From Kiritimatiellia bacterium (GTDB taxonomy: Bacteria > Verrucomicrobiota > Kiritimatiellia > JAAZAB01): a stretch of 64,000 bases of DNA. The stretch covers positions 448,001-512,000 of the forward strand of contig JAXGPF010000003.1 of assembly GCA_040767085.1 (NCBI GenBank), given 5' to 3'. The position numbers and the translations under genes are program-made. Below the pieces are notes generated by a model. The model searched no databases. It saw only the letters and a list, made by a program, of their open reading frames with translations, and was not told the DNA's origin. Below are positions 12,870 through 64,000 of the stretch, piece by piece (position 1 is the first letter of the stretch; every line of letters begins with the position of its first letter).

Positions 12870-12926
12870 TCCGGCCTTGCGGAACGACGAGGATGGGGAT
12901 AGAATGCGGGCATACGGAGAAAAATT

Positions 12927-13641: not shown

Positions 13642-13666
13642 TTGTCAGAAGGTTTGGACTCCACCT

Positions 13667-16600
13667 ATGCCCACGAACCTCTTCATCACCAATGGCGCAA
13701 GCGGCAACCTGGGCCAGCGCCTGCGCGAACTGATCTCAACGAGCCGGGAGATGCGGGCGCTGGTGGGCTTTTTCTATTTCTCCGGCGTCAAGGTGCTTTA
13801 TGAAGCATTGCGGGCCAACCCAACCATCAAATTGCGTGTGCTGGTGGGAATGGAAGCCGAAGAACACTGCGGTCAATTGCAGGAACTGGTGCTATCCTGT
13901 GGCGAAAAGAGCCGGGGCGAGACTCAGGATGCCTATGTGGACAATCTGCGCCGCGCGCTACGTTTCGCATCCCTGGATAAACAATCCTTTCATGAAAGAA
14001 TCGGCGCTTTTGTCGAGCTTGTCCGCGAAGGCCGCCTGGTCATCCGCAAGACGCGGGAGCCCAATCACGCGAAACTCTACCTGTTCGACATCGCCGAGCC
14101 CTACTGCAAGGTGAAACCGGGCGTATGGATCAGCGGCAGCAGCAATCTCACGCTGCCCGGCCTGGAGTCGCAGGGAGAGCTGAACCTTGACCTATCGGAC
14201 TTTGGCTTTGCCGAGGCCGGTGCTTATTTCGACGAACTCTGGCGCGACGCGGTTCCACTCACTGAAAACGAGAACGTGCGGCAGAGGATTCTCTCCCTGA
14301 TCGACCGCGCCTCTATCGTTTCTCCTGTCACTCCGTTTGAGGCATACATGCTGGTCCTGAAGAACTACGTGGAGCACCGCATGCTGGCGGACCACGGAGG
14401 CCGGATGAACCGCATTCTGGAAGACGCCGGTTATATCCGGTACACCTACCAGGTGGACGCCGTGAATCAGGCCATTGCCACGCTGGACGGCTATAACGGC
14501 GTCATCGTGGCCGATGTAGTAGGCCTCGGCAAAACCATCATCGCCTGCCTGATTGCCCGTTTGCGCGGCCGCCGCGGCATTGTTATTGCTCCGCCTGGCC
14601 TGATAGGTGATCGCAACGCTACCACTGGCTGGCGCGCCTATCTGCGAGAGTTTAAACTTCATGACTGGGAAGTGCGTTCCTGCGGTAGCCTGGATGAAAT
14701 CCGCGCCTACGTCGAACGCGACGCAACCTTCCGCACTGTGATCGTGGATGAGGCCCATCGCTTTCGCAACCAGAACACCGAAGACTATGACGACCTTTTG
14801 CAGACATGCCGCGGCAAAGAGGTGATCCTGCTCACCGCCACGCCTTTCAACAATCGTCCCGCCGACCTGCTCTCGCTCCTGAAACTCTTTTTGCCGCCGA
14901 AGAATTGCCCGCTAGTCCTTGATGGCAACATGGAGGCCGATTTCAGGGACTACAACGAGATTTTCCGCATGATTGGCTTCGTGTTGAAGAACATGAAGAC
15001 TGCCGAAAAGTATGATGAAGTCTGCCGGATGCTTGAACGACTCCACATCGCCTTGACGCCTGAAGCAGGGAACTACAAGAAGATTAAGGAAGCGCTCGGC
15101 AAGCGCTCAGCCGACGTTGCCCGCAAGATGCGCGCTATCATTGAACCGGTCACCATCCGCCGTAACCGCCTCGACCTCAAGGGCAACCCGGACTATGCCA
15201 GGGAGATCACGACACTTTCAAACGTGCGCCCCCCGGCCGAGCAATTCTACTTCCTGTCCAAAAAACAGAGCGATTTCTACGATCGGGTCATCTCCGAATA
15301 CTTCGGTCCCAACGGCCGGTTCCACGGCTCTATCTACCGCCCCGTGCAGTACGATACCTCGGATGACCGGGAAGAAGCCCAGCAGATCAACATGTTCGCA
15401 TTTATGCGCGGCCTCTTTGTGCGCCGCTTCGAAAGTTCCTTCGGCGCCTTCGCCAGGAGCCTGGAAAATGCAATCACCATGCATGAGAAGGTCGAGGAAT
15501 TCGCAAAGGACACCGGCACGTTGCTTGTAAACCGCACCTTGATGGACAAGATTCTTATGGAGGAAGATGATCGGAAACAGGAAGAACTCCTGCAAGAGAT
15601 GATCCGTAATCTTAAGAAAGGCGAAACCCCTGGCCACCAACAGGTCTATCATCTCGACCAACACTTCGATAAAGAGCGTTTCTTCCGCGACCTCAAGGCG
15701 GACATCAAACTCCTTCGCGTCGTCAAGGAGGAGATGAAGGACTTAAACCTTGAGATGCACGACCCCAAAGCCCAACGCATCATTGAGATTCTAAAATCTG
15801 TTCTCGCCCACACCTGTAAGGAAATCACCGGAAAACAGCAGCGCAAGGTACTGATCTTCAGCGAATACGCCGACACTGTAGATCACCTGCAAGGCTATCT
15901 CGATATCGCCCTGCCCAGTAAAGTCCTGGTGGTGAACGACCGACTTTCACGCGAGATGGACCGCACGGTCAAGGCCAACTTCGATGCTTCCTTGCCGGAT
16001 GCCGAGCAGGAGGACGAATTTCAAATCCTGCTCTCCACCGACCGCATGAGTGAAGGTTACAATCTCAATCGCGCCGGCCTGGTCATTAATTACGACATTC
16101 CCTGGAACCCCACCCGCGTCATCCAGCGTGTGGGCCGTATCAACCGCATCGGCAAAAAGGTCTACGAAAACCTGTACATTTTCAACTTCTTCCCCACCGA
16201 GCAGGGCGCGGACATCCACCGCAGCCGGCAGATTGCCGGCGAGAAGATGTTCCTGATCCACTCGACCATTGGCGAGGACGTGCAGATCCTGGCCCCGGAC
16301 GAGGAACCCACAGCCGCTGGGCTCTTCCAGAAGGTCAACGCCGACGCCGAAGAACAGGAAGGCGAGAGTTTCCTTACAAAGGCTCAGCGGGAACTGAAAC
16401 GGCTCTCCCAGCGCCACCCGGAAATACTGGAGCGTATCGCCCAACTCCCCCCGCGAGTCAAGACAGCCTCCAAACACCCACCGGAAGGCGTGTATTTTTT
16501 CAAACGCCGCGGCGCGGCCCTGTTTGCCCTGCTGCACAACGCCGATGCCGTCATCCCCGTTACTATCGAAGAAGGCATCGAGGCGATCCGTTGCGAACCG

Positions 16601-17026
16601 GCCGAACCGCGCGTCGAATTCGCTTCAGACTTTTGGTCAAAGTATGGAGCGCTCTGCACCTACACGCGCGCCGCGCAACAGGAAACACCCGCCACACAAG
16701 GGTGGGTGGCCCGCGCCCGAAATCAACTCTTGTCATTACTCGCCACGGCCCCAGAAACCCGCCGGCAGTTCCTCGAGTTGCTCATAGAAGACATCCAGTA
16801 CTATGGCACCTTGTCCGAGCGTACGTTACGCAAGATCGCTAAACCGGACATCACTGATCCAGATGGTCTTCGCGAGATCGAAAAGCTCCTGGACGCACTG
16901 AAAGGCGAACTCGGTCCCGACTACCTTTCGATTTACAAGAAGGTGGGGGTTGAGGACCAAGTGATTATAACCATCGAACAACAAGGCAGGATTACAGAAC
17001 CTCCTACACAAGGGATTCCCACTTAA
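13667..17026 (+). CDS. PLD-family nuclease fused to a SNF2-like helicase
   Basis: NHAKLYLFD...SGSSNLT (PLD nuclease motif), ADVVGLGKT (Walker A), VDEAH, LLTATP, SEGYNL, NPTRVIQRVGRINRIG. Confidence 0.9.
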   Translation: MPTNLFITNGASGNLGQRLRELISTSREMRALVGFFYFSGVKVLYEALRANPTIKLRVLVGMEAEEHCGQLQELVLSCGEKSRGETQDAYVDNLRRALRFASLDKQSFHERIGAFVELVREGRLVIRKTREPNHAKLYLFDIAEPYCKVKPGVWISGSSNLTLPGLESQGELNLDLSDFGFAEAGAYFDELWRDAVPLTENENVRQRILSLIDRASIVSPVTPFEAYMLVLKNYVEHRMLADHGGRMNRILEDAGYIRYTYQVDAVNQAIATLDGYNGVIVADVVGLGKTIIACLIARLRGRRGIVIAPPGLIGDRNATTGWRAYLREFKLHDWEVRSCGSLDEIRAYVERDATFRTVIVDEAHRFRNQNTEDYDDLLQTCRGKEVILLTATPFNNRPADLLSLLKLFLPPKNCPLVLDGNMEADFRDYNEIFRMIGFVLKNMKTAEKYDEVCRMLERLHIALTPEAGNYKKIKEALGKRSADVARKMRAIIEPVTIRRNRLDLKGNPDYAREITTLSNVRPPAEQFYFLSKKQSDFYDRVISEYFGPNGRFHGSIYRPVQYDTSDDREEAQQINMFAFMRGLFVRRFESSFGAFARSLENAITMHEKVEEFAKDTGTLLVNRTLMDKILMEEDDRKQEELLQEMIRNLKKGETPGHQQVYHLDQHFDKERFFRDLKADIKLLRVVKEEMKDLNLEMHDPKAQRIIEILKSVLAHTCKEITGKQQRKVLIFSEYADTVDHLQGYLDIALPSKVLVVNDRLSREMDRTVKANFDASLPDAEQEDEFQILLSTDRMSEGYNLNRAGLVINYDIPWNPTRVIQRVGRINRIGKKVYENLYIFNFFPTEQGADIHRSRQIAGEKMFLIHSTIGEDVQILAPDEEPTAAGLFQKVNADAEEQEGESFLTKAQRELKRLSQRHPEILERIAQLPPRVKTASKHPPEGVYFFKRRGAALFALLHNADAVIPVTIEEGIEAIRCEPAEPRVEFASDFWSKYGALCTYTRAAQQETPATQGWVARARNQLLSLLATAPETRRQFLELLIEDIQYYGTLSERTLRKIAKPDITDPDGLREIEKLLDALKGELGPDYLSIYKKVGVEDQVIITIEQQGRITEPPTQGIPT

Positions 17027-29351: not shown

Positions 29352-30168
29352 GAGCGCAGAACAGATGGTCGAGTTCTACCTACAGAAGGGTCCCCGCATC
29401 TTCGCTGACATCGCAGGCGCCCGTACTCTCCAGCACTGGTTCCACAGGAAATTCCCTAAAGACGTACTCAGAGATGCGCTGCGTGACCCGCAAGTCTTCG
29501 GTGAGAAGACACTGGGCGAAAGCGTCAAGCGACTAGTCATCCCTTCATACAATCTGGGCGAAGACGATGTTTATCTCTTCAAGACGCCGCATCATGAACG
29601 ACTTAAGCGTGATTGGAAAGTGCCAGCATGGCAGGTGGCATTGGCCACCAGTGCTGCACCGACATACTTCCCTGCAAGTCGGTATGTGGAAAACGTGCGA
29701 CACATTGATGGGGGAGTTTGGGCCAACAACCCTATCATGGTAGGCGTTGTTGAGGCCGTAAGCATGCTGTCGGTGCCTCTTGAAAGCATCTATGTGCTAA
29801 GTCTTGGCACATCAGATGCCGTTGTTCGACGTCCATCTTCTTTGGACTCCGGCGGGAAGTTAAAATGGGCGAACCATGCGGCGCAACTGATTATGCGTGG
29901 GCAAAGTCTTGGCGCATGGAAACAGGTAAGCCACCTTCTTGGCGACGGTAGAGTCAGTAGAATCGACCCCAAAGTCCCAGATGGGCTTTTTGCTCTGGAT
30001 AAGGCTAACACGGGAAAAGAACTTATCGCTAAAGCCGCGCATGAAAGCAGGATTCACATGCCGGAGATTGAAGCAAGATTTATGGGCCATAAAAGTGGTG
30101 ACTATGTCCCATGTCATGGGGGAGTGCCATCTAGAGGAGCCGAAGAGGAGAGCAACAATGCTAATTGA
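29352..30168 (+). pseudogene. CBASS patatin-like phospholipase effector, 5'-truncated by the IS
   Basis: FKTPHH, ALATSAAPTYFP, HIDGGVWANNP, VLSLGT are present; the GGGxxG and catalytic GxSxG motifs are absent, and the frame (SAEQMVEFY) abuts the IS end. Confidence 0.85.
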
Positions 30169-31336
30169 CAGTACCAAATCGGAGAGGCTGAGCGAAATAT
30201 TTGGATACATCGGCGAAGAACTTGATATTCCTGAAAATATCTTCTTAACCGCAAGAAGACGGTATTCGATGCTTGCAGATTGGCTCAAGGATGATCATCT
30301 GGAGCGGTTTGCATCCGACGCCAGCATCTACCATCAAGGATCACTTCGCCTTGGGACGGCAGTGCGTCCTGTCAAGGATAATGATGAGTATGATGTTGAC
30401 CTTGTCTATTGTAGGGACATCAAAAAAGAGAGTACAACACAAGAGAAACTCAAGAACGAGCTCGAAGAACAGTTGCGCAGATATCTTAGGCACCTTCAGG
30501 CACAGAAGGAGAGCTTGCCGGAACTTGTTGCTGGGCGGCGATGCTGGACGCTCGACTACAAGGGGCAGTTCCATATGGATTTGTTGCCAGCAATTCCTGA
30601 CGACGAAGCTGATGCCTACAATCTCCGCAACATTTGTGACGGTATCATTATACCCGATCGCAAGCTTCATGAGTGGCAACACAGTAATCCTAAGGGATAT
30701 GCGGACTGGTTTAGTGAACAACAGAAGGTGTTGCTTACTGAATGGCGAGCAAAGATGGCAAAAGCACAAGATGTAGATATAGAGACGATTCCTAAGGAAA
30801 GAGTGCCTACTCCGTTGAGGAGGGTCGTTCAAATACTGAAACGGCACCGCGATATCCGCTATCATGGAACTCCAGATGATAAGCCGATTTCCATAATCAT
30901 CACAACATTAGCTGCCAAGGCCTATAGCGGAGAAGTAAATATCTATGACGCTCTAGCATCTACCGTGACAAAAATGCGGGATGGCATCATGAAGGTGAAT
31001 GGTGAATGGTGGGTTTCGAATCCCATAAATCCCAACGAGAACTTCGCAGATAAGTGGAAGGAAGGCGAAGATCCGCAGAGAGCTATGCGTTTCTTCGAGT
31101 GGCTTGACCAGGTTGAAGCAGACATTACTGCTGCAGGAAAACAGACTGGCATTCATCGTCTTGTGGAAAGCCTTTCTCCGGTCTTTGGTAGCGCACTAGT
31201 GAAGCGTGCGGCGGAACGGTACGGAAAGTCGGTCGATGGTGCACATCAGAGCGGAACCCTGAAGATGGCCGCGAAGACAGGGATACTGGGTGTCATCGGG
31301 ACAACAGTAAAGAAAAATACCTGGTATGGGTCCTAA
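30158..31336 (+). CDS. CBASS cGAS/DncV-like nucleotidyltransferase (CD-NTase)
   Basis: QGSLRLGTAVRP...EYDVDLV...HMDLLPA, SNPKGYADWF, QILKRHRD, KPISIIITTLAA, NPNENFADKW; C-terminus KKNTWYGS; GAGGAG SD before ATG 30158. Confidence 0.92.
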   Translation: MLIDSTKSERLSEIFGYIGEELDIPENIFLTARRRYSMLADWLKDDHLERFASDASIYHQGSLRLGTAVRPVKDNDEYDVDLVYCRDIKKESTTQEKLKNELEEQLRRYLRHLQAQKESLPELVAGRRCWTLDYKGQFHMDLLPAIPDDEADAYNLRNICDGIIIPDRKLHEWQHSNPKGYADWFSEQQKVLLTEWRAKMAKAQDVDIETIPKERVPTPLRRVVQILKRHRDIRYHGTPDDKPISIIITTLAAKAYSGEVNIYDALASTVTKMRDGIMKVNGEWWVSNPINPNENFADKWKEGEDPQRAMRFFEWLDQVEADITAAGKQTGIHRLVESLSPVFGSALVKRAAERYGKSVDGAHQSGTLKMAAKTGILGVIGTTVKKNTWYGS

Positions 31337-31805
31337 TAAGACATATTTTAATACCCATTCGGGGCCGTTGACGATTGCCGTTCAGGGGGCTGGATTGAGG
31401 CGGCAAATCCCATCCTCGACACTTCAGTTTAACAAAAATGTTTCTCTCACATGGATTGGGTGTGTGCAACCGAGCGAGCTCAGTGATTTCTACACGATCA
31501 AAATAAAGTACAGATTGCGTGAGCGACCGCATGTCAGCGTCCTGGCGCCGGAGCTGATGCCTCGGAAAGGTGAACGGATACCTCACCTATTCCCGGGGAA
31601 GGAGCTATGCCTCTTCCGTTACAAATACTACGAATGGAACTCACGCATGCATCTTGCTGATACCATCCTACCGTGGTCATCAATCTGGCTGTTGCACTAT
31701 GAGATATGGCATGCAACCGGAGTTTGGTGCGGCAGTAAACAGGAGCACCCAGAGGACAATATGCTGAAGGAGCCGGAACAGATGACCGAGGATATAAACA
31801 AATGA
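31326..31805 (+). CDS. CBASS-associated stand-alone E2-like (ubiquitin-conjugating fold) protein
   Basis: LTWIGCVQPS...YTIKIKY...PHVSV...IPHLFPGKELCLF...W...LADTILPW..W...YEIW..TG.W.G; overlaps the CD-NTase stop. Confidence 0.8.
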   Translation: MGPNKTYFNTHSGPLTIAVQGAGLRRQIPSSTLQFNKNVSLTWIGCVQPSELSDFYTIKIKYRLRERPHVSVLAPELMPRKGERIPHLFPGKELCLFRYKYYEWNSRMHLADTILPWSSIWLLHYEIWHATGVWCGSKQEHPEDNMLKEPEQMTEDINK

Positions 31806-34800
31806 GCCGATCAATGGGTTCCGAACACAACACCGTGCAAGCGCCACTGATTAGGTATGCGGAGGAAGTCGGATGGACTTATGTGCCGCCCTCCGAGTCC
31901 GTGATCTTGCGGAAAGGCAAAGGCGGATTGCTGTTCAACCGGATTCTGGCTGAGAAGTTGATCAAGCTGAATCCCGGACTGATGACCGCAGACAATGCGC
32001 ATGCTGTCATCCGCCGGATTGAGGGCGCGCGGAACACAATCGAAGGCAACGCGGAAATATTGGCATGGCTGCGCGGCGAACAAAGCATCCACGACGAGGA
32101 CGATAATCGCGAACGGAATGTGACGGTTGTTGATTTCTTACGGCCGGACGCCAATGCTTTCCACGTCACACCGGAATGGCAATACACAAATGGGCGGGAA
32201 ACCCGCCGCGCGGATGTGATGTTCCTGGTCAACGGCATCCCTGTCGCCATCGTTGAGACCAAGAATGCCGCCAAAACCGGCGGCATCGCGGAAGGCCTGA
32301 TCCAAATCCGGGAATACCACCATGAAACCCCGGAAATGCTGACCACGCCCCAAGTTTTCAATATCACCCAATTGCTGGATTTTCACTATGGCGCAACCTG
32401 GAATCTTGACCGGAAAAATCTGTTCAAATGGAAGGAAGTTGAAAAGGAGTTTATCGCACCGGACGCCGCATCCGCCGCGAACACGCATTCCTTCGAAGCC
32501 CGGGTGACGTCGTTTTTCGACCGCCGCCGGTTTCTGACAATGTTGAAGGAATGGATTTTGTTTTTCTATAAAGACGATGAACTCCAAAAAACCGTTCTGC
32601 GCCCGCATCAAACCCGGGCGGTGGAACGGATTCTAACCCGCTGCGCCGACGCCAAACGCGCCACCGGCCTGATCTGGCACACCCAGGGTTCCGGCAAAAC
32701 CTTCACCATGATCACCGCGGCGCGGATGATTTTGCAGGACCGCTCAAGGTTCGGCAAGGCAACAGTCATCCTGATGATTGACCGCAACGAGTTGGAGGGC
32801 CAACTGGCCGGCTGGGTGGACCGCATTCTGGGTGAGATGAAGGCCCATGACATCACCATCGCATACGCCGACAGCAAACGCCGACTGCGCGAATTGCTGG
32901 CGGGCGACTTCCGCGGGCTGATCGTCTCGATGATTCACAAATTCGACGGCATCCGGAAGGACATCAATACCCGCGACAATATCTTTGTGCTCGTGGATGA
33001 GGCGCACCGCACCACCGGCGGCCATCTCGGCAATTACCTATTGGGGGCTTTGCCGAAAGCCACCTTGATCGGCTTCACCGGCACACCCATTGACAAAACC
33101 GCCTACGGCAAGGGCACGTTCAAGGTTTTTGGCCGTGAAGATGCGCGGGGATACCTGGATAAATATACCATCGCCGAGTCCATTGAGGACGGAACCACCG
33201 TGCCATTGAAATACACACTGGCGCCGAGTGAAATCCGGGTGCCCAGACAACAACTTGAGGAAGAATTCCTGGATCTTGCCCACGCCCAAGGTGTAACCGA
33301 TGTGGATGAATTGAATAAAATCCTGGATCAGGCCATGCGATTGAAGGCTTTTTTAAAGGCGGATGACCGCATCGGTAAAGTCGCGTCATTCGTAGCGGAG
33401 CATTTTACGAAAAATGTCGAGCCGTTGGGCTACAAAGCCTTCCTGGTGGCCGTTGACCGCGAGGCCTGCGCGCTTTACAAAGCGGCGCTCGACAAGCTGC
33501 TGCCCCCGGAATATTCCCTGCCTGTTTACACACCCGCGCAACATGACAGCGAAAAATATCCGCTGGTGCACAAACACCAAACGACACCCGAGGCGGAAAA
33601 AAAGGCGCGCAAACTGTTTCTGAAGGCCGATACTTTGCCTAAAATACTCATCGTTACCGATAAACTTTTGACGGGATTTGACGCGCCGGTGCTGTATTGC
33701 ATGTATCTGGACAAGCCCATGCGGGATCATGTCCTGCTCCAGGCAATTGCCCGGGTAAACCGGCCTTATGAAACCGCACCCCGACCGGCGCAACGGAATG
33801 GGGAGGGCAAAACGCCGCTCTCACATAACACGCCGCCTTCCACGGTGATCACTCCCGTGCCGACCCGGAAACCATGCGGATTGGTGGTTGATTTCATCGG
33901 CATATTCGAGAAATTGGAAAAAGCCTTGGCGTTCGACTCGGATGTGGTCACTGGTGTTATTGAAGACCTTGATCTCCTTTTCGACAAGTTCAAGGCGCTC
34001 ATGAACGGGCCGGCGCAGGAATATCTGCGCCTCTGCCGCGGGCCAGTTGACGATAAAACTGTCGAGCAGGCCATTGAACTATTCGCCGATCCGGCCAAAC
34101 GCGAAGCTTTTCTGAAGGTTTACAAGCAACTTGAGACGCTCTATGAAATTCTTTCGCCATCGCCGGTTTTGCGGGATTTTGTCGAGGATTTTGGCTGTCT
34201 CTCCCTCTTGTATCAAATCGTCCGAAATGCATTTCGCAAGCAGACCGTCTTCTACGACGACTTGGCCGGCAAAACCGAGCAGTTGGTGCGGGAAAAGGCG
34301 ACAAGCTACGGCCTTGACACCACCTTAGCCGTTGTGAAAATTGACGCTCAAACGTTGGAAGCCATCAAATCGCGCGGCGGCTCTGACAAGGCCAAAATCA
34401 TCAACCTGACCAACAGTATCAGGCGGACGACGCTTGAGGATGCCGACGCCAACCCATACCTCAAACCTATCGGCGACCGCGCGGAAGCCATCATGGACGC
34501 CTACGATCAGCGCCAAAACACAACCACGGAAGCGCTTAAACAGATTGAAGCGTTGATCCGAGAAATCATTGAAGCGCAAAAGCAGCAGACACAAATGGGG
34601 TTTGACGCGGCAACCTTCGCCTGTTTCTGGACCTTGAAACAGGCCAACGTGGAACATCCCAAGCAAGCCGCGCCTATCATCCGAGCACTCTTCAGCCGAT
34701 TCCCACACCATCGCGACAACGCAACGGAATTGCGCCAACTTAAAGCCGAACTGTACAAGACTTTGCTGCCGCTGGTTGGCAAAACAAACATGATCCCCTT

Positions 34801-34834
34801 GGCGGAAAAACTGCTCCGCGCGGAGGGGCAATGA
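31802..34834 (+). CDS. hsdR: Type I restriction enzyme R subunit
   Basis: RADVMFLVNGIPVAIVETK, QIREY, IWHTQGSGKT, DEAHR, GFTGTP, KLLTGFDAP, MYLDKP, LLQAIARVNR. Confidence 0.93.
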   Translation: MSRSMGSEHNTVQAPLIRYAEEVGWTYVPPSESVILRKGKGGLLFNRILAEKLIKLNPGLMTADNAHAVIRRIEGARNTIEGNAEILAWLRGEQSIHDEDDNRERNVTVVDFLRPDANAFHVTPEWQYTNGRETRRADVMFLVNGIPVAIVETKNAAKTGGIAEGLIQIREYHHETPEMLTTPQVFNITQLLDFHYGATWNLDRKNLFKWKEVEKEFIAPDAASAANTHSFEARVTSFFDRRRFLTMLKEWILFFYKDDELQKTVLRPHQTRAVERILTRCADAKRATGLIWHTQGSGKTFTMITAARMILQDRSRFGKATVILMIDRNELEGQLAGWVDRILGEMKAHDITIAYADSKRRLRELLAGDFRGLIVSMIHKFDGIRKDINTRDNIFVLVDEAHRTTGGHLGNYLLGALPKATLIGFTGTPIDKTAYGKGTFKVFGREDARGYLDKYTIAESIEDGTTVPLKYTLAPSEIRVPRQQLEEEFLDLAHAQGVTDVDELNKILDQAMRLKAFLKADDRIGKVASFVAEHFTKNVEPLGYKAFLVAVDREACALYKAALDKLLPPEYSLPVYTPAQHDSEKYPLVHKHQTTPEAEKKARKLFLKADTLPKILIVTDKLLTGFDAPVLYCMYLDKPMRDHVLLQAIARVNRPYETAPRPAQRNGEGKTPLSHNTPPSTVITPVPTRKPCGLVVDFIGIFEKLEKALAFDSDVVTGVIEDLDLLFDKFKALMNGPAQEYLRLCRGPVDDKTVEQAIELFADPAKREAFLKVYKQLETLYEILSPSPVLRDFVEDFGCLSLLYQIVRNAFRKQTVFYDDLAGKTEQLVREKATSYGLDTTLAVVKIDAQTLEAIKSRGGSDKAKIINLTNSIRRTTLEDADANPYLKPIGDRAEAIMDAYDQRQNTTTEALKQIEALIREIIEAQKQQTQMGFDAATFACFWTLKQANVEHPKQAAPIIRALFSRFPHHRDNATELRQLKAELYKTLLPLVGKTNMIPLAEKLLRAEGQ

Positions 34835-55878: not shown

Positions 55879-56349
55879 CTCCGTTAATATCCTTTTCCCT
55901 AACTTTTAAATTATGACGCGGATGCCTTAAAACTGCAAGTTAATACCACGCAACCCGTCAAAACTCCATGATTTTCCACGGCCGCGGCGCGCCGGGAATA
56001 TTGCCGAAAGAACACTCCGATTCGTTGTTTTAATGGTAGGACAAACCAATCGCCCCGGGTATCGGGGAAACCCCTGGAACCACCTGCTAAAAACCTTAGC
56101 GGGCTGGGGGCGCGCCAACATTTCAAATTTTCCCCCGATGACCAGCTTCCGGCAGCTTGGCAGGTTTCAAGCCGGTGAAGATCGCGTAAAGCGCCGGCAA
56201 CGGCGGAAATAATGATTGACATTCATTTCAAAAACGCTGAAATTGCCAAAAAGCAAGGAGCATAAAATTTCATCCGGGAATTGGCGGCAGGCATGAACCA
56301 TGCCGCAAATCCGGCATGGCGCCGGGCCGCCCGCGCCCAAGGCAAACAA

Positions 56350-57837
56350 ATGAATATTCTGCTGATCTACCCGGAATTCCCGGACACGTTCTGGAGTTTC
56401 AAACACGCGCTGGCGTTCGTCGGCAAGCGGGCGGCGTTGCCGCCGCTGGGACTGCTGACCGTCGCCGCCATGCTGCCGCGGGAATGGTCCCAGCGGCTGG
56501 TGGACGCCAATGTGCGGAAACTGGCCAAAGCGGACCTGGCCTGGGCCGACTGCGCGTTCATCAGCGCCATGGGCGTCCAACGCGCATCGGCCCGGCGGAT
56601 CATCAGCCAGTGCCGCGAAGCGGGATTGCGGATCGTGGCCGGCGGGCCGCTGTTTCAAACCGCCAGCGAGCAGATCGCCGCCGTGGACCATTTCGTATTG
56701 AACGAGGCGGAACTGACACTGCCGCTTTTCCTGCGCGACCTGGCGCAAGGGCAGCCGCGGCGGGTCTATGCCTCCGACCGGTTTGCCGACCTGCAACAAA
56801 CCCCCTTGCCGCGTTGGGATTTGCTGGAGATCAAACGTTATGGCTGCATGAGCCTTCAATTCTCGCGCGGCTGCCCGTATAACTGCGATTTCTGCAATGT
56901 CACCGCCCTGCTCGGACGCCGTGTCCGCATGAAATCGGCGGCGCAAATCGTCGCCGAATTGGACGGCATCTACCGGCGCGGCTGGCGCGGCGATGTGTTT
57001 TTCGTGGACGACAATTTCATCGGCAACCGGGTCTTCCTGAAGGCGCAACTCCTGCCGGCCCTGATCGCGTGGCGGCGGCGCAAGACCGGGGTGCTTTTTT
57101 TCACCGAGGCTTCGATCAATCTGGCCGATGACCCGGAGTTGATGGATATGATGGTTGCGGCCGGATTCAACAAGGTGTTTATCGGGATCGAGACCCCGGA
57201 CGAAGCCAGCCTGGCCGAGTGCAGCAAACTGCAGAACAAGCATCGTAATCTCGTGGAGGATGTGAAGCGCATCCAGCGGGCCGGGCTGCAGGTGCAGGGC
57301 GGATTCATCGTGGGATTCGACCACGACCGCCCTTCGATTTTCCAGCGCCAGATTGACTTCATTCAGAAGAGCGGCATTGTGACCGCCATGGTCGGCCTGC
57401 TGCAAGCCCCGCCGGGCACACGGCTTTACGAGCGGATGAAATGCGCCGGCCGGCTGCGGGGGGAATCGTCCGGCGACAACGTGGACGGCACAACCAACAT
57501 TGTCCCGGTGATGAACCTTGAAATGCTGCGCGCGGGCTACCAGAGCATTCTGCGGCACATCTACTCCCCGGAGCACTACTACGCGCGGATCAAGACCTTT
57601 CTCCGCGAATACACCCCGCCCCGGCGCCGCGGCCTCCCCCGGTTCTCCCACCTGCTCGCGCTGGCGCGCTCCTTCTACCGGCTGGGGATCGTGGGCCAGG
57701 AACGGCTGTACTACTGGAAACTCCTGCTTTGGACGCAATTCCGGCGGCCCCGGCTCATCCCCGAAGCCGTGATTCTGGCCATCTACGGGCGCCACTTCCG
57801 CAAGGTCTGCGAGCCGCTGGCGCAAAACCGCGACTAG
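56350..57837 (+). CDS. B12-binding radical SAM protein (DUF4070-type C-terminus)
   Basis: FPDTFWSF, PPLGLLTVAAMLP, RGCPYNCDFC, FVDDNFIGN, GFIVGFDHD, PGTRLY. Confidence 0.92.
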   Translation: MNILLIYPEFPDTFWSFKHALAFVGKRAALPPLGLLTVAAMLPREWSQRLVDANVRKLAKADLAWADCAFISAMGVQRASARRIISQCREAGLRIVAGGPLFQTASEQIAAVDHFVLNEAELTLPLFLRDLAQGQPRRVYASDRFADLQQTPLPRWDLLEIKRYGCMSLQFSRGCPYNCDFCNVTALLGRRVRMKSAAQIVAELDGIYRRGWRGDVFFVDDNFIGNRVFLKAQLLPALIAWRRRKTGVLFFTEASINLADDPELMDMMVAAGFNKVFIGIETPDEASLAECSKLQNKHRNLVEDVKRIQRAGLQVQGGFIVGFDHDRPSIFQRQIDFIQKSGIVTAMVGLLQAPPGTRLYERMKCAGRLRGESSGDNVDGTTNIVPVMNLEMLRAGYQSILRHIYSPEHYYARIKTFLREYTPPRRRGLPRFSHLLALARSFYRLGIVGQERLYYWKLLLWTQFRRPRLIPEAVILAIYGRHFRKVCEPLAQNRD

Positions 57838-57865
57838 TCCCTGCCGCGGCCGGGACGCGCGGGCA

Positions 57866-58381
57866 TCATTCCACGACCAGATGTTCGGCCCGGAATGCGC
57901 CGATTTCCACCGCCACACGATCGCCGGACTGGATGCTGGCGCCCGGATTGGCAAACAGGATGACGTAAATCCGGCCCGCTTCCGGCCGGACCGCCGTCGA
58001 ACGCAGCGTTCCCATCTTGGGCATCTTGGGCACCTTATGCCGTTCACCCGTGGCCTCGTTAATCAACCATGCCGCCTGCGCGCTATCGGTCAGTGCCGCC
58101 GCTTTATCGGGATCGAGCACCCGGTAACGGAAGTCGAGGATATGCCCCTGGGCCGACAGCCGCAGGCTTTCAACACGCATGCCCCACCGTTCCGCCAAGT
58201 CGGCCGCCGCCGCGCTTGACAGGATGGTGGTTGACCGAGCGTGGTTGGCCGCCGCATCCGGCGGCGGCGGGCGGGCGGACGGCAGTGGCGCCACGCATCC
58301 GACCGTCAGCATAAGCATCAAAACCGACGACGACGCCCGGAAAGGTAGACGAAGATGATGGTTAACGACCATGGGGATCAT
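57866..58381 (-). CDS. Hypothetical lipoprotein, last gene of the multicopper oxidase operon
   Basis: Hydrophobic stretch ending LTVGC, Pro-rich linker, beta-rich domain (LDFRYRVLDPDKA...LFANPG); ATGA overlap with the upstream gene. Confidence 0.7.
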   Translation of the reverse strand: MIPMVVNHHLRLPFRASSSVLMLMLTVGCVAPLPSARPPPPDAAANHARSTTILSSAAAADLAERWGMRVESLRLSAQGHILDFRYRVLDPDKAAALTDSAQAAWLINEATGERHKVPKMPKMGTLRSTAVRPEAGRIYVILFANPGASIQSGDRVAVEIGAFRAEHLVVE

Positions 58382-59703
58382 GGCAAATCAACTTCAACTT
58401 TGTAGACCCGCACCCGGCCAGGCGGAGTATTGGTATCCGTTAAGGTCGTCACATTGTCGGCGCCAGGTTCAAGCCCGGTCGCGGGCTCCCATGGTCCGCC
58501 GCCCGGCAGGAGCTGATTGCGGGAAAACAAGCGGTAGCTGCGCCCGGCCGAGGTGTCACCCACCTGCACCTGTTTTCCCCCGCCATTCACGGCAATACCG
58601 GCTATGCGCACATACGACTGCCCATCCAGCGGTTTGGTGTCCGCTACATATTCCTGCAGGTTGGAAAACCCGTCGCCATCCGCATCGGCATCCGGCACGC
58701 CATTGGTATAACCGCCGAACCAGGTCTCCTCCCAGGCATCCGGCAAACCGTTGGCATTGGAATCCAGCGGTTTCGGCGGATTGCTCACCGCGCGACGGTC
58801 ATACCAGGTCAGCGCCGGCAAGGCCGGATTGGCGACCAGCACATCGACGGTCTTGCGCGGCGGCAACATGACGCTGTACTGCCATTTTCGGAACGCGTAA
58901 GGGAACCCGTCCTCGGCCACGATCTGGCCATAGGCGTTAGCAAGCACGGGCATGCGGAGCCGGGACCCCGCATTGATCATGCGGAACAGCACCCGTTCGC
59001 CATCCGCCGCCGCGGTTGTCCAGACGCCATTGGTGCGGTCCTCGCCGTTCAACAGGTAATACCCGGCCTGGTAGTCCATCGTGCTGGAAACCATCCGGCC
59101 GGGGCCGAAGTTGTCATGGGAAACCGCTTGCGTGAGCCGCGGTTCGATTTCGGAATAGAACAGCAAAACCGCGCGGTCATACACCACGTTCGAATAGGCC
59201 TGCCCGGGCTGATAATCTTGAATCACCGCGCCGTAAAGGCCCATGGAGCATTGGACGGCCGGATGGGACCCGCTGTGATACAAATATGTCCCGGGCCGGA
59301 TGCCGGTCCAGACGTAATCCACCGGAGCGTTATTGCCTGGCGCCGTTTCCAGCGCATAAGCGACCGCCCGGCCGGCGCCGTTGCGCACCGGCGCCTGACC
59401 GGTAGCCAGGGGTTGGCCCGGAATCACCAGCGAAACGGGCTCCGGCAGATCGTTATCCAGGTGGATGGTCAAAACCGTGTCGCCCGGGGGCACCGTTAAA
59501 ACCGGGCCTGGCACGGTTACGGCGCCATCCCGGCTGGCAAAACCGGTATCCCGCGCAAATCCCCATTGCGCCATCCGCCCGCCGTTGTTGGGGAGCGCAT
59601 TGGTCACCGGCGCCGCCCGTAGAAAAAATTCCGCACCTTGAACGGATGCCGCCATCCCGAGCATCAGGACTGCGCCCCATCCGCCGCTGAGTATGTTTTT
59701 CAT
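58378..59703 (-). CDS. Exported two-domain cupredoxin protein lacking the copper motifs, with C-terminal DxDGDG/sorting-like domain (subunit C)
   Basis: Signal peptide, WGF...VPGPVL, PVSLVIPG, PGTYLYHSG...MGLYG, YYLLNG, LFRMINAG; tail DSNANGLPDAWE...DADGDGFSNLQEY. Confidence 0.8.
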   Translation of the reverse strand: MKNILSGGWGAVLMLGMAASVQGAEFFLRAAPVTNALPNNGGRMAQWGFARDTGFASRDGAVTVPGPVLTVPPGDTVLTIHLDNDLPEPVSLVIPGQPLATGQAPVRNGAGRAVAYALETAPGNNAPVDYVWTGIRPGTYLYHSGSHPAVQCSMGLYGAVIQDYQPGQAYSNVVYDRAVLLFYSEIEPRLTQAVSHDNFGPGRMVSSTMDYQAGYYLLNGEDRTNGVWTTAAADGERVLFRMINAGSRLRMPVLANAYGQIVAEDGFPYAFRKWQYSVMLPPRKTVDVLVANPALPALTWYDRRAVSNPPKPLDSNANGLPDAWEETWFGGYTNGVPDADADGDGFSNLQEYVADTKPLDGQSYVRIAGIAVNGGGKQVQVGDTSAGRSYRLFSRNQLLPGGGPWEPATGLEPGADNVTTLTDTNTPPGRVRVYKVEVDLP

Positions 59704-59758
59704 TAAAGTCCATCCTTCCTGATATTTTCCTGGCAACATTAAATTGCACCGCACCGCA

Positions 59759-61042
59759 TTAATGCATGGGCATACTGTTGGTTGTGGGCGGCATTACCAT
59801 CATCATGGTTGACATGCCGCCGGGGAACACATTGTTGTTCACGATCTCTTTTTCGTTGTGCGAATGCCACATGAACATGAAGGCGCCGTGCGGGTTAAGC
59901 CCTTCGTGGGCGGGCGGCAGCATGCCCATCCCCCCCAGGAAAGGACTGCCGCTATAATGCCCGCCGTAGGTCAAGTCCATGTCGCTCGGCAGGATGACGG
60001 GAAACGGCTTGCCGTGATCGGGGGCATATTCATGGGGCTGCATGGGCTCGTTGGTGCTGGTATGCCCGTAAATATCCCATCCCAATTTGGCGCCGGTCCA
60101 CTCGAAAACCGCATCCGTCGTCTGCCCGGGCGCCACGGTAATCGTGAATTCCGATCCGGCCAGATCCGGCCCGGAAACTCCCGGCTGGCTTTCCAGCATA
60201 CGCCCGTCACGCGCCAGGATGGCGGCATTATTCCCATGGAAATGGAAGGGGTGCGCATCACGGCCGGCGCCCACCAGCCGCATGAGGAGTTTTTCGCCCG
60301 GCAGCATTGCGGGTTGGCAATCATAGGGCTGGTGCGGCAGCCACGGCGCGAACGCCGGCAGCATGGTGTCCGGCGAGCAGCGTCCATTGATAAACCAATA
60401 CACGGGCCAGAAAGCCGTCATATCCGCCCGGGCCGGCCGGCCCGCTTCGATCGCCGCATGCACATCGGGATCAATCTCGGTCAGCAAGAACAGATATTCC
60501 TGGTCGAAAACGGTAGCCGCATGGTCATACGCCTGCGTACTCACGGCCGGCCGAACGATCAAAGCGCCGACTAAGCCCATCTCGACCTGCAGGTCCTGGC
60601 GCGTTCCGCTCTGGTAAAGATAGGTTCCGGGCTGGTGGGCCGTGAAATGGTATGATACCGTGCCGCCATTCGGTGGCGCTTCCCGGGTCAGGGCGCCGGC
60701 CGCTCCGCCCGCCGCGGTGACGCCGACCTGCCCGGGGAAAACCATGGACACGGGCGTCGTCAAGGTGTTGCGCAGATTGATTTGGACGCTGGCGCCCTGG
60801 CGCACGATCAGGGTCGGGCCGGGATATTGCATGGCGCCGGATCCGACCGCAAACCCCCACATGTAAATCGAAGCGCCGTCGGGCGTCAGGATATGCCCGT
60901 CGCGGGCCGTCAGTTCAACCACGCCGCCATCGGCCACCGCCAGGCCGTCAATCCAATGCCGCGCGGCGGAGGCCGGGTTGAGGGCGAGTGCCAGCAGCCC
61001 TGCCGTGCAGATCGCCAAATGCGCTGTTTGGTTATATCTCAT
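59759..61042 (-). CDS. Exported two-domain multicopper oxidase-like protein with Cu ligands only in domain 2 (subunit B)
   Basis: Signal peptide, PGPTLIV; domain 1 degenerate (PVSMVFPG, YLYQSG); domain 2 has HPFHFHG and WHSHNEKE. Confidence 0.85.
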   Translation of the reverse strand: MRYNQTAHLAICTAGLLALALNPASAARHWIDGLAVADGGVVELTARDGHILTPDGASIYMWGFAVGSGAMQYPGPTLIVRQGASVQINLRNTLTTPVSMVFPGQVGVTAAGGAAGALTREAPPNGGTVSYHFTAHQPGTYLYQSGTRQDLQVEMGLVGALIVRPAVSTQAYDHAATVFDQEYLFLLTEIDPDVHAAIEAGRPARADMTAFWPVYWFINGRCSPDTMLPAFAPWLPHQPYDCQPAMLPGEKLLMRLVGAGRDAHPFHFHGNNAAILARDGRMLESQPGVSGPDLAGSEFTITVAPGQTTDAVFEWTGAKLGWDIYGHTSTNEPMQPHEYAPDHGKPFPVILPSDMDLTYGGHYSGSPFLGGMGMLPPAHEGLNPHGAFMFMWHSHNEKEIVNNNVFPGGMSTMMMVMPPTTNSMPMH

Positions 61043-61131
61043 CTCGCGTTTCCTTCCTTATGGCCTGATTATACCGCCCGCCGCCGCCCATCCACGGACC
61101 GGGTAAGTTCGGGATGCAAGGCGTTGGGCAA

Positions 61132-63654
61132 TCACTGAATCACTATCTCGGTCATCATTCCGCCGTAATCTTCCGCCCCGTTGCAAAGGTCTTCCACGTC
61201 GGTGGAATACAACATATAGGTTCCAACCGGCACCCCGGCTGTGTCCAGGATGGCATCACAGGCTTCGCCGCCGCCCAAAGTGACCGACATGGTCCGGTAA
61301 TAGAGGTTGGCGCCGAGCAGCGGCCCGGCGCCATCCGGGTCGGAACCGCGCAGCAGCCGGGCGGAGCGGCCGACGACGAGCATGGGCAGGCCGAGCACCG
61401 TTACGGTATGATACTTGACGGTATCCAGGCTCGAGAGCCGCAGCAGGATTTTCTGGCCTTGTTTGGCGACAATCAAGGCCGGCAGCTTTTGGGCGTCAAA
61501 GCCATTGACATTGGCGATATAACCCGGGTTGATGGTGTCCGGATACCCGCGTCCGTTGATCCAGGGATAATCGTCCTTCATCATGGAAAACGACAACGGC
61601 TGGACGTCGATGCTCTGGTCGTGAAATCTGCTGTCGAACCCGCCGAGTTGCAGGAGGTAATCGACGTCGTAATGCGTTGACCCGTCGCCGTCGTTATACG
61701 CATACCGGTACCCGTTGGAATGGACGAAGCCGCCGCCCAGCACGGTTCCGTCGGGCAGGTTGTTTTGAATCGGATCCACGGACACATTTCCCAGCATCCC
61801 CATTTGCATATGTTCGGTGGCTTCCACGTGGCAGTGGTACATGAACGTGCCGGGCTCAACGATCTCATAGTAATACGTCAGCGTGCCGCCCATGTTGATG
61901 GCGATGGACCCCATCGGCTCGCCGTCAAAGATCGTCGCCGCATTGGGGAAGCCATGGAAGTGCACGGTATGCGGATCGAACAAGTCGGGACGCATCAGCA
62001 TGCCCACGTTGCTCAGGCGCAGGAAGACGCGCTGCCCTTCCTTGAACCGCAGGGTCGGCCCGGATAATTCCGCCGCCAGCATGCCGGCCATCATTTTCCG
62101 GTCCGGCGGGATGCCGGTAAGGTCCGAGAAACCGAAGCAATAGAAATCGCGTCCGTCGCCGCCCTTGATAAATCCATCGCCCGCCCCCAGGTGAACGTTG
62201 ACATAGTCGTTGCTGACGTTGCCGTCGCCGTCCGTGTCAATGCCGTCCAGGTCAGGCACGTAATCGGCCGGGACGCCGAAATATGCGCTGCTCACGTAAT
62301 TACCCACCGCCGCCCCGACAACCAGGCCATTGCTGTTGCCGAACGAGAAATGTATCCCGGCCCAGAGCCGGGAATCGGCGGCTTCCCGCGCCGCCTGCCC
62401 AAAACCGGTATACATCCGGTTGGTGGACATCATGTTGTAAGGCCGGACGGTAAACGCCATGGCATCCGTGCCGAAAAAATTTGACAACACGGCGGCCGCC
62501 GCCGCGCTGAAAAGGCTGTGCGCCGACACGTACTCGGGAAAACGGGGCGTATTGGTGACATACGGAACCCAGTTGGCATCGGCCGCGGTCAAAGGATTGC
62601 CGTCGGTTTCGGCCGCCCGGATTGCCGTAATGGGCCGCCAGGCGTTGTAATGGTATTTGGCGTCCCAGGCGCTGATGCCGGCGTCCGCCAAAGCCACATT
62701 GAGCTGCGCAAACAGGCGCGCGCTATCGGCCAGCCCCAGATTGGTGGCAACCGACCGGGCGATTTCATTCCACCGCCCGACAGTCGTCGCCGTCCCGGGC
62801 ATATCCACCCAGAACCAGACGATTTTGGGCTGCTCGGCATTGGTCCAGACCACGTTGGTCGAATACTGCCTGACTTCTTCCAGGGCGGCGGCATACTCGG
62901 CGCCCGCCAGCGGCGGCGGCGGCGGCGGGCGGAATTGGCCGCCACCCGTCATGGCAAACGGCATGACCATGGCCCAGTGGGGCATCATGGCCGGCTGATA
63001 GTCCGGGAAAGTCGGCTGCCAATCCCCGGCGTTGGTGCCCGGAACATAGGGCGTCATATTGGTGGACATCGCGGACATGTCATCCGCCCGCATGGCCACG
63101 ATTTGCCGGCCCACGTAGTTTCCGAGCACCATCCCGTTGGTACGGGCCTGGGCATCCGGCTCCGCCGCCAGCGAGGCGGCCAGGGCGGCGTCCAGGGCCG
63201 CGATGTTGTTGGTATAGAGCGCGGTCAGGACGGCATGCGCGGCGGCGGCGGCGGCGGCCGGGGTGGAACAAGGTTGCCGGGGGGTGACCGACACCATGTA
63301 GGCCGCGCGCGACCGGTCAATGGAATTGACCGCATCATACATGGCGGCATGGGTCATGGCCAGCGACCGGGACGCCGTAATGGCCATCTGTTGATTGCCG
63401 GCAATCAGCGACACCGCGATGACATTCCAGTTCGAGACCACATCCGCGCCAGCCGCGGTTACCAGCATTCCGGCCGCTACGGCCATGCGCGCCAGCCTGG
63501 CGGCGGGCGTTGCTGAAACACGCGCCTGGACAGGCGCGCGCCACACGCGTCCGAACCGCCGCCCTGCCCCGCGGCCGGCAGCAGGCGCCGGCCAGACATG
63601 CTTTAAAATACCGCTAACGGCATTGCGCGTGTGCATATTCATCCCTATGTTCAT
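61132..63654 (-). CDS. Fusion of a vanadium haloperoxidase/PAP2 domain and a two-domain multicopper oxidase (subunit A)
   Basis: DVVSNWN, AMYDAVN, KYHYNAWRP, FPEYVSAHS, SRLWAGIHF; linker DTDGDG; then HTVHFHG and YHCHVEATEHMQMGM; GGAGG SD upstream. Confidence 0.85.
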   Translation of the reverse strand: MNIGMNMHTRNAVSGILKHVWPAPAAGRGAGRRFGRVWRAPVQARVSATPAARLARMAVAAGMLVTAAGADVVSNWNVIAVSLIAGNQQMAITASRSLAMTHAAMYDAVNSIDRSRAAYMVSVTPRQPCSTPAAAAAAAHAVLTALYTNNIAALDAALAASLAAEPDAQARTNGMVLGNYVGRQIVAMRADDMSAMSTNMTPYVPGTNAGDWQPTFPDYQPAMMPHWAMVMPFAMTGGGQFRPPPPPPLAGAEYAAALEEVRQYSTNVVWTNAEQPKIVWFWVDMPGTATTVGRWNEIARSVATNLGLADSARLFAQLNVALADAGISAWDAKYHYNAWRPITAIRAAETDGNPLTAADANWVPYVTNTPRFPEYVSAHSLFSAAAAAVLSNFFGTDAMAFTVRPYNMMSTNRMYTGFGQAAREAADSRLWAGIHFSFGNSNGLVVGAAVGNYVSSAYFGVPADYVPDLDGIDTDGDGNVSNDYVNVHLGAGDGFIKGGDGRDFYCFGFSDLTGIPPDRKMMAGMLAAELSGPTLRFKEGQRVFLRLSNVGMLMRPDLFDPHTVHFHGFPNAATIFDGEPMGSIAINMGGTLTYYYEIVEPGTFMYHCHVEATEHMQMGMLGNVSVDPIQNNLPDGTVLGGGFVHSNGYRYAYNDGDGSTHYDVDYLLQLGGFDSRFHDQSIDVQPLSFSMMKDDYPWINGRGYPDTINPGYIANVNGFDAQKLPALIVAKQGQKILLRLSSLDTVKYHTVTVLGLPMLVVGRSARLLRGSDPDGAGPLLGANLYYRTMSVTLGGGEACDAILDTAGVPVGTYMLYSTDVEDLCNGAEDYGGMMTEIVIQ

Positions 63655-64000
63655 GGATTAACCTCCGCGTTTTCGGATTGATCCAATTCGATCCGATAAA
63701 ACAGCCGATCCGGCAAATCCGGAAGATTGTCCACCCGGTTCAACGGTTGGTCGGCCGGCAAATGTTCCATGACGGGTACATAGCCGCCGCTCTCGATATC
63801 CGCGGTACGGGTGATATCATACGCCTTGCCCCAGACACTTTGCCATTGGAGCCGGATACCATCCCCCCCGCGCTCAACGGCGGTAATCCGCAGCAGCGAT
63901 TCCGCGTCGCGCGGATCGGTTCCGGCATAATATTCATCCAGGTCGCGGAATCCGTCGCCATCCGCGTCCGAGACAGCCGTCACGACAAGCCCGAACGCTC
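63651..64000 (-). CDS. 3' end of an exported protein with a DxDGDG/sorting-like C-terminal domain (5' part outside the window)
   Basis: DADGDGFRDLDEYYAGTDPRDAESLLRI...LQWQSVWGKAYDI...FYRI; frame open to the window edge; ATGA overlap with the next gene. Confidence 0.75.
   Translation of the reverse strand, partial: AFGLVVTAVSDADGDGFRDLDEYYAGTDPRDAESLLRITAVERGGDGIRLQWQSVWGKAYDITRTADIESGGYVPVMEHLPADQPLNRVDNLPDLPDRLFYRIELDQSENAEVNP

Follow-up and report, generated by a model that had tools for sequence, protein, structure and literature searches.

Two-domain multicopper oxidases (MCOs) of known structure are homotrimers, in which domain 1 of one chain and domain 2 of its neighbor form a trinuclear copper cluster between them. 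In type C enzymes (Protein Data Bank (PDB) entries 3g5w and 2zwn, the latter the metagenome laccase mgLAC), a chain of two cupredoxin domains has its type 1 (T1) copper in domain 1 and carries all eight cluster histidines, and the trimer contains three sites. Six-domain MCOs, such as ceruloplasmin, hephaestin, and bacterial MnxG, have one trinuclear cluster per six domains, in a single polypeptide with several T1 sites; two-domain trimers have been proposed as their evolutionary source. Here we describe a cassette of four genes (A, B, C, and D) from a Kiritimatiellia bacterium, found in a stretch of 64,000 nucleotides (the window; positions 448,001 to 512,000 of contig JAXGPF010000003.1 in assembly GCA_040767085.1, and part of contig C22 of the 4.08-Mb genome in our numbering). 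Genes A, B, and C encode two-domain MCO paralogs among which the copper ligands are so divided that the three proteins are likely to be subunits of one heteromeric oxidase with a single active site.

In overall plan A and B follow the type C enzymes, with which A shares the H-x-x-H-x-H and H-C-H...H...M motifs; whereas one type C chain supplies every cluster histidine, here these residues are split over two genes and would make one site. A single trinuclear cluster per six domains, as proposed for the cassette, is the arrangement of the six-domain MCOs, which differ in being one polypeptide with more than one T1, as against three genes and one T1 here; the two are likened only through their shared MCO domains. 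The Mnx complex of Bacillus sp. PL-12 (MnxG, MnxE, and MnxF) offers a further parallel, an MCO that is active only as a complex with small subunits from one operon and that acts on extracellular metal. It differs from the A-B-C set in that MnxG holds all of the oxidase's copper-site ligands and in that its accessory subunits are not paralogs of the MCO.

An apparently homologous cluster has been reported from Sideroxydans lithotrophicus ES-1 (Slit_1812-1818; Keffer et al., 10.1101/2024.09.20.614158). The accessible part of that preprint describes three cupredoxin proteins, predicted to be extracellular, two of them with MCO motifs and the third, much larger, without such motifs and with adhesin- and lyase-like domains, along with two small proteins, one SCO1/SenC protein, and a cytochrome; abundance of the cluster was higher on magnetite than on Fe(II)-citrate. 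That part of the text makes no mention of split ligands or a heteromer, and the words trimer and AlphaFold are absent from the preprint's text. Exactly the same seven-gene layout, as judged from the published description rather than from sequence, is found in genome G285 (loci L084 and L085; G285:C1:1829001-1850000), where A' (528 amino acids, aa), B' (527 aa), C' (2879 aa), D' (170 aa), a LolA-like protein, SCO1/SenC, and a cytochrome c are encoded on one strand. The G285 proteins show the same ligand split and form a divergent second subfamily (47-49 percent identity to A and B, and 42 percent for D'); this version, with its 2879-aa C and no haloperoxidase-like domain, differs from the cassette in the window. 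He et al. 2017 (PMC5566968) note that metal reducers and oxidizers, too, have SCO1/SenC and cytochrome genes next to their extracellular MCOs of the OmpB/MofA type, and in this respect the neighbors of those oxidases resemble the neighbors of the cassette.

Two other candidates for the same system were rejected on the accessible parts of their descriptions: the Nitrospina MCO (PMC3578206) is a different, MnxG-like protein, and the "heterotrimer" of Nmar_1354 (PMC11761707) is made of a single gene product in two forms, one of which has a pendant domain. No description of a heteromeric, heterotrimeric, or split MCO was found in the literature, although the supplements to the Sideroxydans preprint may hold more.

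Copper Ligands Divided between Two Genes

The four genes all lie on the minus strand:

Gene A, 61132..63654, minus strand: longest open reading frame (ORF), 840 aa; haloperoxidase-like domain, linker with a calcium-type DxDxDG motif, and two-domain MCO module
MCO module of A, 61135..62202, minus strand: residues 485-840; domain 1 with T1 and four cluster histidines, domain 2 ligand-free
Gene B, 59759..61042, minus strand: ORF, 427 aa; two-domain MCO paralog, domain 1 ligand-free
Gene C, 58378..59754, minus strand: longest ORF, 458 aa; ligand-free two-domain MCO paralog at about residues 41-330, followed by a tail
Gene D, 57866..58381, minus strand: ORF, 171 aa; signal peptide, then a beta-sandwich domain at residues ~56-171

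Domain 1 of A contains HTVHFHG (residues 562-568; 61951-61971) and HCHVEATEHMQMGM (residues 607-620; 61795-61836), which supply a T1 set (H562, C608, H615, and M620) and four cluster histidines (H565, H567, H607, and H609). In a sequence alignment these motifs match the T1 and cluster motifs of 3g5w residue for residue, and A retains the H-C-H bridge between T1 and the cluster. Domain 2 of A is degenerate (HTVTVLG, 749-755; YMLYSTD, 813-819). The ligands of B are in its domain 2, where HPFHFHG (residues 264-270; 60233-60253) provides H264, H267, and H269, and WHSH (residues 392-395; 59858-59869) provides H393-S394-H395, with a serine where the T1 cysteine is expected. C has neither a T1 nor a cluster ligand set (74 aligned rows). 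A T1 site (His, Cys, His, and Met) is present in A only, B and C being without one, and no chain carries eight cluster histidines: A has the four of domain 1, B the four of domain 2, and C none.

All three proteins have the two cupredoxin domains of a two-domain MCO, as indicated by Pfam, hhalign, and Foldseek of a B model. Pfam recognizes MCO domains in A (Cu-oxidase_3/2, residues 528-628 onward), B (Cu-oxidase_3/_2), and C (Cu-oxidase_3). Profile comparison with hhalign shows them to be paralogs that are collinear over both domains (E 6e-47 for B and C, 2.6e-23 for A and B), the ligand motifs of one paralog falling opposite positions that are degenerate in its partner. The solved structures nearest to the oxidase parts are two-domain MCOs and copper nitrite reductases; the Nitrosomonas europaea blue copper oxidase 3g5w matches A at E 3.7e-11 and B at E 3.9e-10, and the leading Foldseek matches of the B model include 3gdc, 3g5w, 7rab, and 2zwn (TMt 0.65-0.69).

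Other conserved features accompany the ligands. B has an insert of about 70 residues (~320-390; 59873-60085), placed between the final strands of domain 2, that scarcely varies across phyla, with W322, D323, Y325, G326, H327, E338, D342, H343, and K345 conserved. The insert, modeled with low confidence, may bind a metal or substrate or make contact with another subunit. Between the cupredoxin domains of A is an invariant N-D-G-D-G-S-T loop (residues 654-660; 174-180 of the module; 77-78 of 78 rows), and both this loop and the DxDxDG-type linker look, by eye, like calcium-binding motifs. An invariant Glu directly before the T1 histidine of A (E614-H615) is also present in 3g5w, and is reminiscent of the acidic residue beside the T1 histidine of ferroxidases.

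The first-pass annotation of this DNA had already recognized complementary ligands in A and B, and every motif that it quoted is at the expected place. Of its stated range, 57866..62200, the upper limit needs correction, since 62200 is the start of the oxidase module of A only and the gene reaches 63654. By treating A as a plain two-domain MCO it overlooked an N-terminal haloperoxidase-like domain of about 480 residues, described below. The first ~45 residues of A are without counterpart in the 19 full-length homologs aligned, and the true start may be later than that of the longest ORF; the start of C is likely to be the ATG at 59703 (MKNILSG..., judged by eye). B has a Sec-type signal peptide, also judged by eye, and the start of D and the stop of C share 4 bases. 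No NCBIfam model reaches its cut-off for any of A to D (the best gives 44 bits against a cut-off of 479), and no Pfam or NCBIfam family was matched by D. Promoter and terminator scans of 57400-64000 gave sites no more numerous than those in shuffled sequence.

Conservation of the Cassette across Phyla

A profile built on B found relatives in 466 species genomes among about 185,000, from which the best 80 loci were kept and classified from six-frame ORFs with the window's proteins as queries; about 8,000 B-type protein clusters were found as well. By record title the 80 loci, among them those of a Myxococcus sp. and of a Methylocaldum sp. isolate, are widely spread: 22 are from Beta- and Gammaproteobacteria (including Gallionella, Sideroxydans, Methylocaldum, and Hydrogenophilus), 14 from Planctomycetota, 12 from Nitrospirota, 10 from Myxococcota, Bdellovibrionota, or "Deltaproteobacteria," 8 from Kiritimatiellia or Verrucomicrobiota, 2 each from Lentisphaerae and Hydrogenedentes, and 1 each from Omnitrophota, Acidobacteria, and Bacteroidales, with 7 unclassified.

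Gene order is nearly constant across these lineages. A lies directly upstream of B in 78 of the 80 loci (the two misses are contig starts), C directly downstream of B in 79 (the miss is a contig end), and D after C in 71, where eight of the misses are contig ends and one, L045, is genuine. All four genes occur in order in 69 loci, with median gaps between ORFs of 4, 4, and 24 bases.

The ligand pattern is equally stable. The domain-1 ligands of A (H82, H85, H87, H127, C128, H129, H135, and M140 in module numbering) are kept in 77-78 of 78 rows; in B, H264, H267, and H269 are kept in all 81 rows and H393, S394, and H395 in 80 of them, as is E399, four residues past the last histidine. No histidine set was found in domain 2 of A, domain 1 of B, or C across the aligned orthologs. 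The absence of a complete site from every single chain, which the first-pass annotation had reported for this one genome, is therefore kept in nearly every ortholog aligned and is no product of chance, and the conservation of ligand pattern and gene triplet that it proposed as a check is borne out across phyla in the 80 loci. A FastTree phylogeny built on 116 modules, with every second locus included, places A, B, and C in separate groups with support of 1.0, 0.99, and 0.998; these well-supported clades indicate that the triplication predates the spread of the cassette across phyla. Median pairwise identity over 66 loci is 61 percent for A, 58 for B, 47 for C, and 41 for D, and the stronger conservation of A and B fits two catalytic and two structural subunits.

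Homologs that commonly occur singly would have counted against an obligate partnership. Besides the linkage of A (78/80) and C (79/80) to B, the window's genome has one copy each of A, B, and C, and five other carrier genomes each have one strong A-type match, adjoining B. Among 101 genomes from the family of a Gallionella metagenome-assembled genome, 9 have an A-type and 6 a B-type gene at E <= 1e-40; at a looser threshold B was found directly after A in two more, bringing the total to 8 of the 9 A-carriers. The cassette is rare and patchy in distribution; in the window's phylum, B was found in 2 of 201 sampled genomes, the window's own included. The six cupredoxin domains are encoded by separate genes in 78-80 of the 80 loci, and the 19 longer B relatives include just two, the metagenome proteins P0243 and P0244, in which B is fused with a C-like module.

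The conserved ligands bear on an alternative in which A, B, and C act separately as homo-oligomers, none of them an oxidase; A would then be a blue-copper electron carrier, whereas B and C would bind copper or have a structural part, as in copper resistance or sequestration. Consistent with this, the best NCBIfam match of all three is the copper-resistance CopA subfamily (38-44 bits against the cut-off of 479), and SCO1/SenC and cytochromes adjoin some loci. Homo-oligomers, however, would leave without purpose the four cluster histidines in domain 1 of A and the four in domain 2 of B, kept in 77-81 of 78-81 rows, as well as the intact H-C-H link from T1 to the cluster in A, and we regard this explanation as very unlikely.

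A Predicted Heteromeric Oxidase with One Active Site

Given the trimer geometry of known two-domain MCOs, the division of ligands between domain 1 of A and domain 2 of B means that the sole complete O2-reducing center would be formed where these two domains meet; such a composite A-B copper site is likely. Domain 1 of A would dock on domain 2 of B to form one trinuclear cluster 12-13 Angstrom from the T1 copper of A, and C would close a six-domain ring through copper-free interfaces to domain 1 of B and domain 2 of A. The ligand counts permit exactly one trinuclear cluster per six domains; the six-domain ring itself we infer. An ABC unit would thus hold one T1 and one trinuclear cluster, with about 4 Cu. 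Single electrons would enter at the T1 of A, and four one-electron oxidations would reduce one O2 to water. All chains are expected to be Sec-exported, which implies loading with copper outside the cytoplasm and fits the SCO1/SenC neighbors.

That C belongs to the same ring as A and B is reasonably likely, and here a second alternative has to be weighed, in which the composite site belongs to an A-B heterodimer or to another oligomer of these two chains, and C is a separate cupredoxin-derived adhesin or carrier encoded in the same operon. One interface between A domain 1 and B domain 2 is enough for one cluster, and C, besides being ligand-free, evolves faster than its paralogs (47 as against 58-61 percent median identity) and has very variable adhesin- or lectin-type extensions, its last strand seemingly replaced in the lineage of the window. 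A free-standing role fits poorly with the position of C after B in 79 of 80 loci at a median gap of 4 bases, with the retention of both cupredoxin domains collinear with B (E 6e-47) in an old separate clade, with the rare B-C fusion proteins, and with the closed trimers of known two-domain MCOs. On this evidence a detached C is unlikely.

Several points weigh against a single-site A-B-C assembly as a whole. Binding between the chains is something that we infer from the sequences, and, as one interface suffices for the A-B pair, the place of C in the ring is argued from paralogy and synteny. The B monomer model is poor in domain 2 (predicted local distance difference test (pLDDT) score about 40-75, mean 64), and C in this genome seems to be without the last beta-strand of short C orthologs, with the tail in its place. 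Genome G249 has an A-type gene for which no B was found with the query used, locus L045 is without D, and D itself is not clearly a lipoprotein in most lineages and, over 72 aligned rows, has no conserved Cys, His, or Met, and hence no conserved metal-binding residues. The stretch is found in wastewater and anaerobic-digester metagenomes, an odd habitat for an O2-dependent enzyme; no RNA dataset is listed with it, the sole run labeled RNA-Seq (X14) being judged probably DNA. The insertion of a transposase gene upstream (see below) might interfere with transcription or other steps in the operon's expression. Any substrate named is conjectural, with neighbors and the magnetite result favoring Fe(II), Mn(II), or cytochrome electrons. 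A complex prediction made with residues 9-360 of the A module, residues 44-413 of B, and residues 44-321 of C, with C as the partner, gave one control that scored near the complex, and it is used neither for nor against the assembly.

As to habitat, run X14 comes from a biogas fermenter, and its contigs of a relative 90-95 percent identical cover C, B, and most of A (58377-63369); the cassette is therefore present in at least two related strains in such habitats.

Protein D

The signal peptide of D contains ...MLMLTVGC, with a lipobox-like LTVGC at Cys29 in which Thr at -3 is atypical. By a rough script, a strict lipobox is present in 27 of 71 D orthologs; several more have Gly-Cys, and others have no Cys. 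An AlphaFold model of D is a beta-sandwich (pLDDT 86.4), and the family comprises 2372 cluster representatives at E <= 0.001. A Foldseek search of D against the PDB gave nothing at E <= 0.001, matches in the protein atlas were to unnamed clusters only, and a wide VIA fold search gave a best Z of 7.4, to archaeal FlaF/FlaG, within the tool's stated noise range. A PCuAC-type copper chaperone was considered for D and rejected, there being no conserved ligands and the scores (Z 6.0 for 6p17 and 5.3 for 3zk0) being within noise. Whether D is a bound subunit of the complex is doubtful, with the chances somewhat below even, and the part of assembly factor that the first-pass annotation proposed for it is conjectural.

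The Haloperoxidase-Like Domain of A

The N-terminal part of A is a domain of another kind:

Vanadium-haloperoxidase/PAP2-like domain of A, 62287..63447, minus strand: approximately residues 70-456, within the N-terminal ~480 residues

An alignment of residues 174-455 (about 280 residues) with the Zobellia galactanivorans vanadium iodoperoxidase (4cit) gives E 6.2e-32, and the domain has weaker matches to fungal vanadium chloroperoxidases; in Pfam it scores 27.8 bits for PAP2 (cut-off 27.2) and 16.4 for VCPO_2nd (cut-off 27). The vanadate/phosphate-site residues are K333, R340, S377, H379, and R429, present in all 19 full-length homologs, and H435, present in 18 of them; the motifs are KYHYNAWRP (62632-62658), SAH (62518-62526), and RLWAGIH (62350-62370). 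A thus has the complete series of vanadate-binding residues (Lys, Arg, Ser-x-His, Arg, and His) that is seen in the Zobellia enzymes (4cit and 4usz), from which it differs by fusion to an MCO and by Ala for Gly, Ser-Ala-His replacing Ser-Gly-His. Haloperoxidase and PAP2 phosphatase activities are not separable by sequence, and the vanadate site is a predicted one. The domain could add halide oxidation with H2O2, peroxide removal, or phosphatase activity, and would give the same assembly a second, peroxide- or phosphate-dependent activity.

Of the 80 loci, 14 have this module, and these belong without exception to Kiritimatiellia, Planctomycetota, or unclassified bacteria. Its attachment varies: it is at the N-terminus of A in the window, at the N-terminus of B in metagenome proteins P0241 and P0242, and a free gene between C and D in L025. 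Such movement among A, B, and a free gene is expected if A and B share one assembly. No description of a haloperoxidase-MCO fusion was found in the literature.

Surface Proteins and Neighboring Genes

Two further features link the cassette to surface proteins:

C tail, 58381..58719, minus strand: 113 residues; TSP3-like calcium motif and beta-rich end
Upstream gene, 3' end, 63651..64000, minus strand: 309 aa in the genome, continuing beyond the window; C-terminal piece of a giant surface protein

The anchor-like tail noted earlier on C is indeed present, and in other lineages Big_9/cadherin-like, lectin-like, or FG-GAP domains are found there. Big_9/cadherin-like repeats occur in 13 of 28 C-terminal extensions scanned (51 exist), and others contain Golvesin_C, malectin, BACON, laminin-G, or FG-GAP domains, with lectin types among them. 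The same 113-residue tail ends both C and the 309-aa upstream protein. A role for it as a general sorting signal was rejected, as the genome has no copies of it beyond these two, which belong to the one operon.

Upstream the operon runs on into the gene for a giant surface protein, a continuation that the first-pass annotation had overlooked; the stop of the 309-aa gene overlaps the longest-ORF start of A. Elsewhere the two are one polypeptide: in 14 of 30 N-terminal extensions of A scanned (32 are at least 120 aa), A is the end of a protein of 1600-2500 residues, and these giant proteins carry SdrD_B, CarboxypepD_reg, beta-helix, and Big_9/cadherin-like domains. In this genome the surface parts are separate upstream genes, one for a 1462-aa SdrD_B/beta-helix protein and one for the 309-aa protein, which form one continuous ORF in five relatives. 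Between them is an ISL3 transposase gene (422 aa; DDE_Tnp_ISL3, E 1e-60; L003:7581-9119), located at about 512581-514119 of G000:C22, just past the end of the window. A 470-aa ORF in the interval between these upstream genes is unlikely to be a real gene (atlas recognition 972, without a Pfam match, and with the ISL3 transposase encoded on the opposite strand). An FG-GAP repeat protein (473 aa; L003:13587-15008) is encoded upstream of the giant surface protein.

The split surface-protein gene raises the question of whether the cassette in this genome is a remnant in decay that the insertion sequence upstream has silenced or rendered useless, and a largely anoxic habitat would fit such a fate. 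The state of the genes speaks otherwise: each of A to D is an uninterrupted ORF, no conserved ligand has been lost, a relative whose surface-protein gene is unsplit (L004) has versions 95 percent identical to them, and near-identical copies have been assembled in several metagenome studies. Decay is accordingly judged highly improbable.

In 24 loci the genes that follow D were cataloged: a subtilase in 14, SCO1/SenC in 6, cytochrome c in 6 (often as a fusion with a periplasmic-binding-protein fold), type II secretion system genes in 3, and, in 2, Peptidase_C25 together with an MtrC/MtrF-like multihaem cytochrome. The adhesin fusions, together with the proteases, SCO1, cytochromes c, and MtrC-like proteins encoded nearby, point to a location of the cassette's product at the cell surface, where the complex would be tethered by the C tail, the upstream giant adhesin-like protein, and perhaps D. 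The most likely of the possible roles, put forward tentatively, is that of a surface oxidase acting on reduced metals or minerals outside the cell, such as Fe(II) and Mn(II), or of a cytochrome-fed electron sink to O2.

Downstream of D, on the plus strand and convergent to it, is a gene for a B12-binding radical S-adenosylmethionine protein with DUF4070 (56281-57837); an operon link was not seen in other loci. Elsewhere in the window is a defense-type island (9204-17026 and 29939-34834) that encodes an Eco57I-like methylase/restriction fusion (1221 aa), an SNF2-type helicase (1155 aa), a SMODS/CD-NTase-like nucleotidyltransferase (465 aa), and a type I restriction R subunit (1010 aa).

Implications for Multicopper Oxidases

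The heteromeric oxidase is built of ordinary MCO domains and is not a new kind of enzyme. By its predicted proteins the cassette falls outside both established classes, as the two-domain MCOs have eight cluster histidines per chain and the six-domain MCOs are single polypeptides; it would work most like an unfused ceruloplasmin-type ring. The most far-reaching version of this interpretation is an obligate A-B-C heterotrimer that serves as a surface-tethered terminal or metal oxidase wired to extracellular electron transfer, joined in this lineage to a vanadium-haloperoxidase-like enzyme so that both O2 and H2O2 would be used as oxidants, perhaps in halide or iodide oxidation, in attack on refractory polymers, or in the scavenging of oxidants by an anaerobe; as the unfused counterpart of ceruloplasmin, it would be a living intermediate between two-domain trimers and six-domain oxidases. 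Taken as a whole, this version is speculative and rather unlikely.

Two-domain MCOs are taught as homotrimers with three identical sites, and the class is among the best studied of the metalloenzymes. If the proposed assembly is correct, it would represent a new quaternary design for MCOs, with an active site shared by two gene products and a third paralog as a ligand-free member of the ring, and the long-standing model for how six-domain oxidases arose would become directly testable at the bench. The fusion to a haloperoxidase-like domain is an unreported pairing of two oxidative enzyme classes. The neighboring genes, the fusions, and the reported induction on magnetite suggest that the cassette may be a hitherto unassigned player in extracellular Fe or Mn oxidation or in the disposal of electrons to O2.

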